Source: a virus
DNA length: 64,000 nucleotides
IMG/VR virus record: IMGVR_UViG_3300037010_002844
Location: 1-64,000 of that record
Direction: 5' to 3' (one strand)
Shown here: piece after piece, positions 62,038 to 63,132 of the stretch
Layout: every line of letters begins with the position of its first letter
Numbering within the stretch: the stretch's first letter is position 1
Notes under the pieces: generated by a model
Told to the model about the DNA's origin: nothing
What the model saw: only the letters and a program-made list of their open reading frames with translations
Databases searched by the model: none
Position numbers and translations under genes: made by a program

Positions 62038-62583
62038 TCAGAGGCTCAAAAAGGCGAAGGGTCCTCGAACGCCCGCGCTGTACTCTGCTGCGGCCTCGAG
62101 GGCCACGCGGAGACGATCTTGGGGTTGCATGTTGCTGTTCCTCGTAGCGTACAGGGCGCCCAGAGCGATCTGGGCGCCGCAGCCCACGGCCGCGTAGTTC
62201 TCACGGGGTCGACCCACCTGGTAGTCCTCTTCAACCACGTAAATCTTACCCTTGAAGCCAACGATGAAGGACGACTCATGCTCTTCCAGCTCGTTCTCCT
62301 TCTTCGCCGCGCCCTTCTCATTCAGGAGTTCTCTGACAGCATCAACAAAGTCATTGACCAGGTACTCCATGTCGTCGGTCTGCTTCACCGATTGCTCGGG
62401 GACCTCGAGCGAGTAGCGTAGCAACTGACCGATGCGGAAGGACCCGCAGAACCCCATGATGAGGTTCTCGTTGATAAAGACCTTCTCATCGGCCCGGTTG
62501 CAGATGCTCAAACCATCGATGCCTGCAGAGTCACCACCGACCCAGACAGTACCCTCGTGTTCCAGTGCGACAATGCAGGTCAT
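62038..62583 (-). CDS. HslV/proteasome-beta-like Ntn hydrolase, paralog 1 (181 aa)
   Basis: MTCIVALEHEGTVWVGGDSA aligns with HslV [20 protein letters not shown]. Thr1 follows the initiator Met. Conserved GxxG/GSG segments. Confidence 0.6.
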   Translation of the reverse strand: MTCIVALEHEGTVWVGGDSAGIDGLSICNRADEKVFINENLIMGFCGSFRIGQLLRYSLEVPEQSVKQTDDMEYLVNDFVDAVRELLNEKGAAKKENELEEHESSFIVGFKGKIYVVEEDYQVGRPRENYAAVGCGAQIALGALYATRNSNMQPQDRLRVALEAAAEYSAGVRGPFAFLSL

Positions 62584-62586
62584 GGT

Positions 62587-63132
62587 TCAACCTTTCACCA
62601 TCAGGGTGTCAAACGGTGGTGCGACGCCGGCATTGTTTTCTGCAGAAACCTTGAGCGCCTCGAGGATCCTCTTCTTCGGCCCCTCATTTCGCGTGGCACG
62701 GAGGCTACCCAGTGCTGGCTCGGCGCCGCTGCCGATCGCGTCAAACTCCCGTGCACTCTCAATGAGCTGGAAGTTGCCCTCGACCATGTGCAGTTCGCCT
62801 CTGTACCCGATCAACAAGGCACCGTGAAAATACCACTGCCCGTGGTGTTCAACGAGGCAGTCGAGCTTCTTCAGACCCTCGCGGAAGGCCGGGATCAGAT
62901 CATTAACGAGGAACGTCTTAGTCGCCACGCCTTCCTCGTGCTTCGGGAACTCGATGGCGTGTTGGATGGCATCCATGACCTTGGACGAGCCGCTGACGCC
63001 GATGCCAATACCGCTCTTCGTGAAGATCTTGGGATGCTTGATGAGGGTGCGACCTAGATTGCCGCCCGTCGCGGCACGATCGCCGCCGAGCCACACGTTC
63101 TTACCGTCCACCAAACCAATGATACAGGTCAT
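62587..63132 (-). CDS. HslV/proteasome-beta-like Ntn hydrolase, paralog 2 (181 aa)
   Basis: AAGGAGAAATAGCA precedes ATG-ACC-TGT (MTCIIGLVDGKNVWLGGDRA). Tandem with paralog 1, 3-nt spacer. Confidence 0.6.
   Translation of the reverse strand: MTCIIGLVDGKNVWLGGDRAATGGNLGRTLIKHPKIFTKSGIGIGVSGSSKVMDAIQHAIEFPKHEEGVATKTFLVNDLIPAFREGLKKLDCLVEHHGQWYFHGALLIGYRGELHMVEGNFQLIESAREFDAIGSGAEPALGSLRATRNEGPKKRILEALKVSAENNAGVAPPFDTLMVKG

Follow-up and report, generated by a model that had tools for sequence, protein, structure and literature searches.

Two paralogous, tightly coupled genes for BPH/HslV-like proteasome homologs in an uncultured huge phage

The locus and the predicted products of genes A and B

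The window analysed here, a 64-kb stretch (positions 1 to 64,000) of IMG/VR record IMGVR_UViG_3300037010_002844, belongs to the genome, ~309 kb in size, of an uncultured phage and carries two adjacent minus-strand genes, named A and B in what follows, whose products of 181 amino acids each are predicted to be N-terminal-threonine (Thr1) peptidase subunits of the proteasome/HslV family. Gene A (62587..63132), identified from the list of open reading frames (ORFs), profiles and predicted fold, encodes the divergent, BPH/HslV-like "A-type" protein, and gene B (62038..62583), which starts with ATG and is recognized by Pfam in addition to the ORF list, profiles and fold, encodes the "B-type" protein. 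A sits within a longer ORF (62587..63192), in which the ATG at 63132 gives a protein of 181 residues beginning MTCIIGLVDGKNVWLGGDRA, and both proteins have the N terminus MTCI. On the minus strand, the stop codon of A (TGA, 62589-62587) is followed by a 3-nt ACC spacer (62586-62584) and then by the ATG of B (62583-62581), an arrangement which, as read in the DNA, is that of translational coupling. The original prediction had described two ORFs of this length at 62038-63132, lying 3 nt apart, sharing the MTCI start and about 35% identical to each other; the coordinates, the quoted N termini and the spacing are exact, the strand, which had been left unstated, is the minus one, and the identity is close to the 33% (62/186 positions) given by BLASTP, with an E-value (2e-30) that places the paralogy of A and B far above chance.

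The two genes are in the same reading frame in the window, but a programmed read-through or fusion across A-TGA-ACC-ATG-B is ruled out, since other pairs differ in spacing and frame (e.g. -4, -1, +1, +2 and +4). A Shine-Dalgarno-like AGGAG (63141..63145, minus strand), to which a role in translation of A may be ascribed, precedes the A start by 8 nt and falls in the 3' end of a poorly conserved ORF of 59 amino acids (63314-63135), which itself stops 2 nt ahead of the ATG of A. A consensus scan of the region 59800-64000 revealed no sigma-70-like promoter, and terminator-like matches were found there only at background level. The G+C content of A and B (0.55-0.60) matches the mean of the window (0.57), which indicates that both genes belong to the genome and were not inserted recently. 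No third copy of the family was found in the window, which therefore holds two members only, both of the active type. Near-identical DNA of the locus was not found in sequenced phages, and neither A nor B matches a defence-system family in PADLOC.

Sequence profiles and predicted structures place both proteins in the proteasome family. B reaches the threshold of the Pfam family PF00227 (Proteasome; 26.9 bits versus a cut-off of 22.4). A has no Pfam match at E<=1, and its membership follows from its match to the phage family phrog_1040 ("peptidase HslV family"; E 1.6e-18 for A and 1.2e-23 for B), from the search of its clade profile against the PDB, from its fold and from its identity to B. Searched with clade profiles of 42 A-type and 45 B-type homologs, the PDB yields only proteasome-family chains, BPH coming first, followed by HslV and by bacterial and archaeal 20S beta subunits; the best match of the A-clade profile is the BPH structure 5ovu (E 8e-5), and the B-clade profile matches BPH at 1.6e-7 and 2.2e-6 and HslV at 4e-5. 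AlphaFold (AF2) models, which are models of monomers, were obtained with mean predicted local distance difference test (pLDDT) values of 95.1 (A) and 93.8 (B). Both are predicted to have a beta-sandwich core with the helices H1 (~50-59), H2 (71-89), H3 (137-146) and H4 (152-168), and to end in a beta strand (174-180) with no helix H5; since the ORFs open with Met-Thr, a propeptide would have no place before the Thr. When compared with the PDB by Foldseek, A is closest to BPH 5ovs (E 1.4e-10, TM-score 0.78) and B to BPH 5ovt/5ovs (E 2.5e-12, TM-score 0.83-0.84). Matches at E<=1e-3 number more than 1100 PDB chains; BPH, HslV, 20S beta and Anbu account for the whole of the top 50, among which there is no monomeric or non-proteolytic N-terminal nucleophile (Ntn) hydrolase.

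The assignment to the proteasome/HslV family put forward in the original prediction is thus borne out by Pfam (for B), by phrog_1040, by the profile-to-PDB matches and by superposition on BPH and HslV, and the comparison with HslV, Anbu, BPH and 20S beta profiles that it had called for gives proteolytic members as best matches, rather than the non-proteolytic hydrolases that would have spoken against it. The likeness to HslV in particular needs to be qualified: the family stands, but BPH is closer than HslV, and the HslV equivalog models of NCBIfam are missed by B (26.9 versus 137 for NF003964 and 26.2 versus 157.75 for TIGR03692) and show no match to A. Since these cut-offs are missed so widely, A and B are group I (HslV/BPH-branch) proteasome homologs and not HslV proper, although the source annotation of both reads "HslVU peptidase subunit". 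With regard to the phage-borne classes PPH, AAH and CPH, described in 2021 by Fuchs, Alva and Lupas (PMC8665760), A and B are set apart from PPH by size and by the presence of H2.

Examination of the active site reveals that both paralogs keep the complete catalytic set. In A, the codons of Thr2, Asp18 and Lys35 are read on the minus strand at 63129-63127, 63081-63079 and 63030-63028, and in B those of Thr2, Asp18 and Lys34 at 62580-62578, 62532-62530 and 62484-62482; the oxyanion glycine is G45 in A and G44 in B (numbering with Met as residue 1). A G-x-G motif at residues 134-136 reads G-S-G in A and G-C-G in B, its middle residue being Ser in all A-type and mostly Cys in B-type proteins. In the numbering of the mature chain, no variation is seen at Thr1, Asp17, Lys33, the oxyanion Gly or G-x-G among the locus-derived sequences (21 of A-type, 15 of paired B-type and 93 of single B-type), and database proteins, 107 of the A-type and 117 of the B-type, likewise conserve the catalytic positions. 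The Cys at position 2 is 97-99% conserved. The placing of Thr as predicted first residue of the mature chain, and the triad on which the predicted activity depended, are thereby borne out: Met-Thr opens both ORFs, the Thr is conserved in 100% of 129 locus-derived sequences, and the loss of Thr or Lys that would have refuted the prediction is seen in neither clade. Because the full set of residues is kept, both A and B should be catalytically competent, as judged from their sequences. The idea that one paralog might be an inactive, alpha-like scaffold was considered and ruled out on the same invariance.

Distribution of the family and conservation of the A-B pair

The family to which both genes belong is very large, with 4825 representatives at 50% identity and 4237 clusters at 90%, and its presence in phages is not in itself remarkable. 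Homologs occur in 213 sequenced phage records, including T5-like Epseptimavirus and many jumbo phages, and in every one of these 213 records the gene is present in single copy. The identity of B-type proteins to many single-copy homologs of phages and prophages is ~46-54%, the closest sequenced phage to B being Moorella phage MTATph1 (46%), and phage models of the BFVD superpose at TM-scores up to 0.95. The original prediction regarded a protease of this kind as unusual in a virus; this does not apply to the gene family, as the sequenced phage records and the classes named in 2021 attest, and it holds for the tandem pair only. Tandem, paralogous or heteromeric forms go unmentioned in the 2021 survey (PMC8665760), beyond which our literature search returned neither paired forms nor studies of the function or structure of the phage HslV-like proteins. 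What is new here is the A-type paralog and the conserved, tightly coupled A-B pair, the single-copy phage homologs being already known.

At 90% identity the A-type proteins fall into ~115 clusters, a narrow group found on huge-phage contigs from soil and sediment, outside of which similarity falls off sharply below ~44% identity; at 50% identity the group is reduced to a handful of representatives within the whole family. Neighbour joining of 134 sequences taken from the loci gave a tree in which the A-type proteins form a monophyletic clade with a long stem, and 11 of the 15 paired B sequences make up one clade inside the large single-copy family; the deep branches of this tree are short and weakly resolved. 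Among 116 unique viral loci, 93 have B only, 15 have A followed by B, five have A alone (a sixth such call, L028, is ambiguous), one has the arrangement B-A..B and one has B-B. With metagenome loci added, 35 unique A-B pairs are available, A being usually directly upstream of B, and in 30 of them the gap between the two genes ranges from -29 to +29 nt, the commonest values being +3, -4 (GTGA/ATGA overlap), +1 and -1.

The neighbourhood of the pair is conserved as well, with the gene order ThyA, A, B, thymidine kinase, CCA-adding enzyme, dCMP deaminase and superoxide dismutase-like protein, and this synteny is kept while A diverges to ~42% identity and B to ~34-50%. Related contigs with this neighbourhood reach 300-370 kb. 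At the protein level, the residues that are invariant in one clade and specific to it concentrate in H1 (P50, K51, D54, A55 and H58 in A; F49, R50, Q53, L54 and Y57 in B), and the pore loop also differs between the clades. On our own reading of the conservation table, the motifs of H3 and H4 (ALG..L and P..R..AL..AE) are common to A and B, and these are the helices that make ring-ring contacts in the proteasome family (PMC8665760).

Further duplications are seen at two loci. On the 324-kb contig IMGVR_UViG_3300044712_001255 (L011, 7424-11188), three paralogs with 23-32% mutual identity all start with MTC, A being immediately preceded by a B-like gene and a third, divergent copy lying 2 kb downstream. 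On a 301-kb contig (L114, 6910-8273), an independent and recent tandem duplication has given two B-like copies with 65% identity, the second of which starts with MTA.

A different context is seen for part of the single-copy family. In 32 of the 93 unique single-copy loci, the gene lies within or beside the head module (terminase, portal, prohead protease and capsid genes, the neighbours being confirmed by PHROG profiles), with a recurrent placement between the large terminase and the portal or head-maturation (prohead) protease; L003, L039, L042, L141, L083, L146, L118, L125 and L142 are examples among others. Part of the single-copy family may consequently be expressed late or linked to the capsid. 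Taken as a whole, genomic context gives no consistent functional clue, some single copies being found near the head module and pairs in a nucleotide-metabolism cluster.

Possible assemblies of A and B

The reading to which we lean, by a modest preference, is that A and B are co-expressed paralogous subunits of a phage self-compartmentalising Thr1 peptidase which usually co-assemble into a mixed particle. By analogy with BPH and HslV, methionine aminopeptidase would take off the initiator Met and expose Thr1, no propeptide being needed; Thr1 would be the nucleophile, activated by Lys33 and Asp17, with the conserved Gly as oxyanion hole; and the subunits would assemble as stacked rings with the active sites turned toward an inner chamber. 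A and B would usually share one particle, either in mixed rings or as one ring of A on top of one of B, and the two types would differ mainly in helices H1 and H2 and in the pore loop. Such a particle would probably work, as BPH does, with no dedicated unfoldase encoded next to it, and its targets during infection would be a limited number of host or phage proteins. Removal of Met, assembly into rings and a protease rather than a ligase activity are what we infer from these relatives, for one of which removal of Met, a free Thr1 and modification of Thr1 by epoxomicin were shown experimentally (BPH; PMC5777263). Co-assembly of A with B is suggested by the coupling of the two genes and by the fixed order in which A precedes B across a diverged huge-phage lineage.

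Several observations weigh against this view. The contact between A and B is deduced from gene order and coupling, and the structure models are of single chains. About 11 unique loci have A and no adjacent B, with room for a downstream gene present; at two of them (L008 and L009) the order is ThyA-A-thymidine kinase, i.e. B has been cleanly lost, and such cases are scattered at several points inside the A clade. A therefore apparently works with no adjacent B, as far as gene content can tell, an obligate A-B heteromer is unlikely, and the heteromeric protease announced in the original prediction was overstated. Furthermore, alternation of A and B is impossible in a ring of 7-fold symmetry. The A protein of the window itself has Ser at two positions that are nearly invariant in its clade (C47, 98%; P50, 99%), beside the oxyanion-loop glycines G45 and G48, and also deviates at L49 (region 62990-62994, residues 47-50); a protein identical to it occurs on five contigs, so that these substitutions are not sequencing errors. 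Finally, BPH, the closest solved relative, showed no in vitro peptidase activity on standard substrates (PMC5777263), and proteolysis by A and B would for this reason be an extrapolation.

A serious alternative is that A and B are two independent homo-oligomeric peptidases, sub-functionalised and each forming its own BPH/HslV-like barrel with differing substrates or partners, whose genes would be adjacent solely as a result of tandem duplication and of a shared operon. This explanation, to which we give about one chance in three, draws on the loci that keep A with no adjacent B at several positions of the A clade, on the retention of all catalytic residues in both paralogs and on the tandem duplication at L114, which shows that duplication alone yields adjacency. 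It draws also on the single-copy B-like gene being the rule, both in the unique viral loci and in the sequenced phage records, which makes homomeric assembly the ancestral state. It does not fit easily with the fixed order and the overlaps or gaps of a few nucleotides in 30 of the 35 pairs, kept despite divergence to 42-70% identity when a leftover adjacency would be expected to erode, nor with ring-ring motifs in H3 and H4 that are still common to A and B while H1 has diverged.

A more far-reaching version of co-assembly is that a multi-subunit, proteasome-like particle arose independently in the huge-phage lineage, from a homomeric ancestor of the HslV/BPH type, with all of its subunits remaining active. 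This we regard as speculative and rather doubtful, and the same caution applies to its structural corollary, according to which A, B and, at L011, the third paralog would hold defined positions, for instance with an A ring on a B ring or in a four-layer stack joined through the diverged H1/H2 faces.

An ATP-dependent machine of the HslUV or proteasome type, in which an unfoldase, either a phage AAA+ protein (29779-31164 or 3045-4205) or one of the host such as HslU, would feed the A/B barrel, appears improbable. That no HslU is adjacent, as noted at the outset, is confirmed by the identity of the neighbours (ThyA, the 59-amino acid ORF, thymidine kinase and the CCA-adding enzyme), and no HslU gene was found elsewhere in the window. 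The two AAA+ ATPases that had been suggested as partners turn out to be weak candidates. The product of 3045-4205 is, according to a domain search, an AAA_5 (dynein/MoxR-type) ATPase, which is not an unfoldase class. The other (29779-31164, minus strand; 461 amino acids) does have a classical AAA domain (PF00004, E 1e-16), after an N-terminal domain of ~200 residues and before an acidic C-terminal tail; a motif resembling the second region of homology (RPGRFD) is read directly in its sequence, its best NCBIfam matches, though weak, are FtsH, PAN and CDC48, and homologs are present on related huge-phage contigs. However, these NCBIfam scores are far under the cut-offs (43 bits versus 500-600), and direct reading reveals a Walker B motif (ILDDFD) that lacks the catalytic Glu and a shortened segment between Walker A and Walker B with no aromatic-hydrophobic-Gly pore loop. 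The gene moreover lies 31 kb from A and B, and its homologs are also found on contigs L161 and L162, which are the A-only contigs of L008 and L009, so that their co-occurrence with A/B reflects only shared ancestry. No ATPase family is enriched beside the A/B-related genes at 114 related loci, and BPH, the closest structure, has no known unfoldase. As a separate observation, PADLOC detects in the 29779-31164 protein a weak similarity, restricted to the P-loop region, to IetA-type anti-phage ATPases.

Last and least probable, A and B might be specific Thr1 transpeptidases or ligases resembling connectase, or amidases, with one defined target, the broader family being perhaps linked to capsid assembly in other phages, a proposal which can invoke the proteasome fold, same triad and sequence-specific ligase activity of connectase (PMC8665760), the inertness of BPH on generic substrates (PMC5777263) and the single-copy loci placed at the head module, but against which stand the absence from both models of the S3/S4 helical insertion that defines connectase, the retention of H1-H4 as in ring-forming members, the lack of any monomeric or non-proteolytic Ntn hydrolase in the top structural matches and the location of the paired genes in a nucleotide-metabolism cluster and not in the head module.

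The choice between a mixed particle and separate barrels bears on a long-standing question of proteasome evolution, namely how homomeric ring proteases gave rise to ordered heteromeric machines, from an HslV-like ancestor to alpha/beta rings and to seven distinct subunits. The A/B locus is a compact, independently evolved two-paralog system with subunits of ~180 residues and no propeptide, and the natural variants with one, two or three paralogs (A-only loci, A-B pairs and L011) would open the first steps of this transition to testing. If true, a multi-subunit particle would mirror, in a virus, the diversification of cellular proteasomes into alpha/beta and beta1-7 subunits; if A and B are separate homomeric enzymes, the locus is an ordinary gene duplication in a known family. 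Its interest would rise substantially were a defined A/B architecture demonstrated. The pair bears in addition on the function of a very large and uncharacterised phage family, present in T5-like and in many jumbo phages.

Accompanying genes and comparison with known systems

Downstream of the pair, the gene of the CCA-adding enzyme (tRNA nucleotidyltransferase; minus strand, 61434-59910) is split into two ORFs (61434-60982 and 60785-59910). The split is due to a clean insertion of 361 nt (60720-61080 region), located exactly between the codons equivalent to 107 and 108 of the intact homolog at L017. The insert has a G+C content of ~0.43-0.45, versus 0.57 for the window, and contains an ORF of 67 amino acids (61028-60825) with a GIY-YIG-like stretch (IRYVGIT); it has no Rfam intron match, and its RNA stability is ordinary (z -0.23). 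A degenerate homing-endonuclease insertion, an unrecognised intron and a truly split enzyme are the candidates, and the same split is found on contigs L004 and L005. No tRNA gene was found in the window.

Downstream of the nucleotide-metabolism genes, the region 53161-59010 (minus strand) holds auxiliary genes: a protein with a Fe/Mn superoxide dismutase C-terminal domain (58213-59010, minus strand; domain search), a CN-hydrolase (53529-54296, minus strand) and a pterin-4a-carbinolamine dehydratase (53161-53532, minus strand), the last two known from precomputed Pfam matches on the identical contig L004. Elsewhere in the window, a phage GroEL chaperonin (27402-29009, minus strand; phrog_5725, E 7e-149) is 45-50% identical to GroEL genes of other phage-collection records, some of which are bacterial or contaminated entries; as a marker of the taxonomy of the phage it is uninformative. 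An ORF of 859 amino acids (11150-13729, plus strand) has no PHROG match, and its relatives in the phage collection, with 40-42% identity, are confined to the uncultured huge phages LR756500, LR756501 and LR756503 (462-735 kb), which places the window in or near this group.

Among known systems, BPH provides the best structural and profile-to-PDB match to both A and B, with the structures 5OVS/5OVT from Thiobacillus denitrificans and 5OVU from Cupriavidus metallidurans. BPH shares with them a compact subunit devoid of propeptide and of C-terminal H5, the catalytic layout of Thr1, Asp17 and Lys and, in the Cupriavidus protein, a chain that begins with Thr-Cys; the structural alignments have 14-20% identity, which amounts to a resemblance and not to a proof of membership. 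Differences are nevertheless apparent. BPH is encoded by a bacterial chromosomal gene in stress-regulated operons, whereas A and B are a paralog pair in a phage nucleotide-metabolism cluster, in a setting that includes GroEL, ATPases and phage-type neighbour genes. BPH is a homo-tetradecamer with two rings, whereas the phage has two diverged paralogs. The pore loop of BPH is elongated and highly acidic; those of A and B, which comprise ~17-19 residues after H2, are charged and seem to be mixed rather than strongly acidic (on average 5.1 acidic and 3.0 basic residues in paired B, and 3.4 acidic and 1.7 basic in A).

HslV (ClpQ), the peptidase of HslUV and a dodecamer made of two hexameric rings, is the second-best structural and profile match; it resembles A and B in size (~175-180 residues), in its Met-Thr start and, for A, in the G-S-G motif. 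When the E. coli HslV sequence is aligned with them, the H1-H2 insert is longer in A and B, and the second residue of the mature chain, which is Thr in HslV, is Cys in both phage proteins. PPH proteins, with ~140 residues, lack helix H2 (PMC8665760), whereas A and B have 181 residues and H2 at 71-89 in both models. The single-copy phage proteins of PHROG 1040 are of the same family as A and B, within which the A-type stands as a separate, narrow clade. Anbu is more distant, with an extended C-terminal H5 that the A and B models lack, and ranks 28th among the structural matches of A (TM-score 0.57 normalised to the target).

A precedent for diverged, duplicated subunits sharing one barrel is found in the 20S proteasomes with more than one type of beta subunit, such as those of Sulfolobus acidocaldarius (6Z46, whose beta chains are among the structural matches of A), Rhodococcus and eukaryotes. 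In contrast to these, A and B come with no alpha subunit in the 64-kb window, no propeptide and no H5, and both paralogs are catalytically intact; their duplication is independent of those of the 20S proteasomes and took place within the HslV/BPH branch, in a virus.

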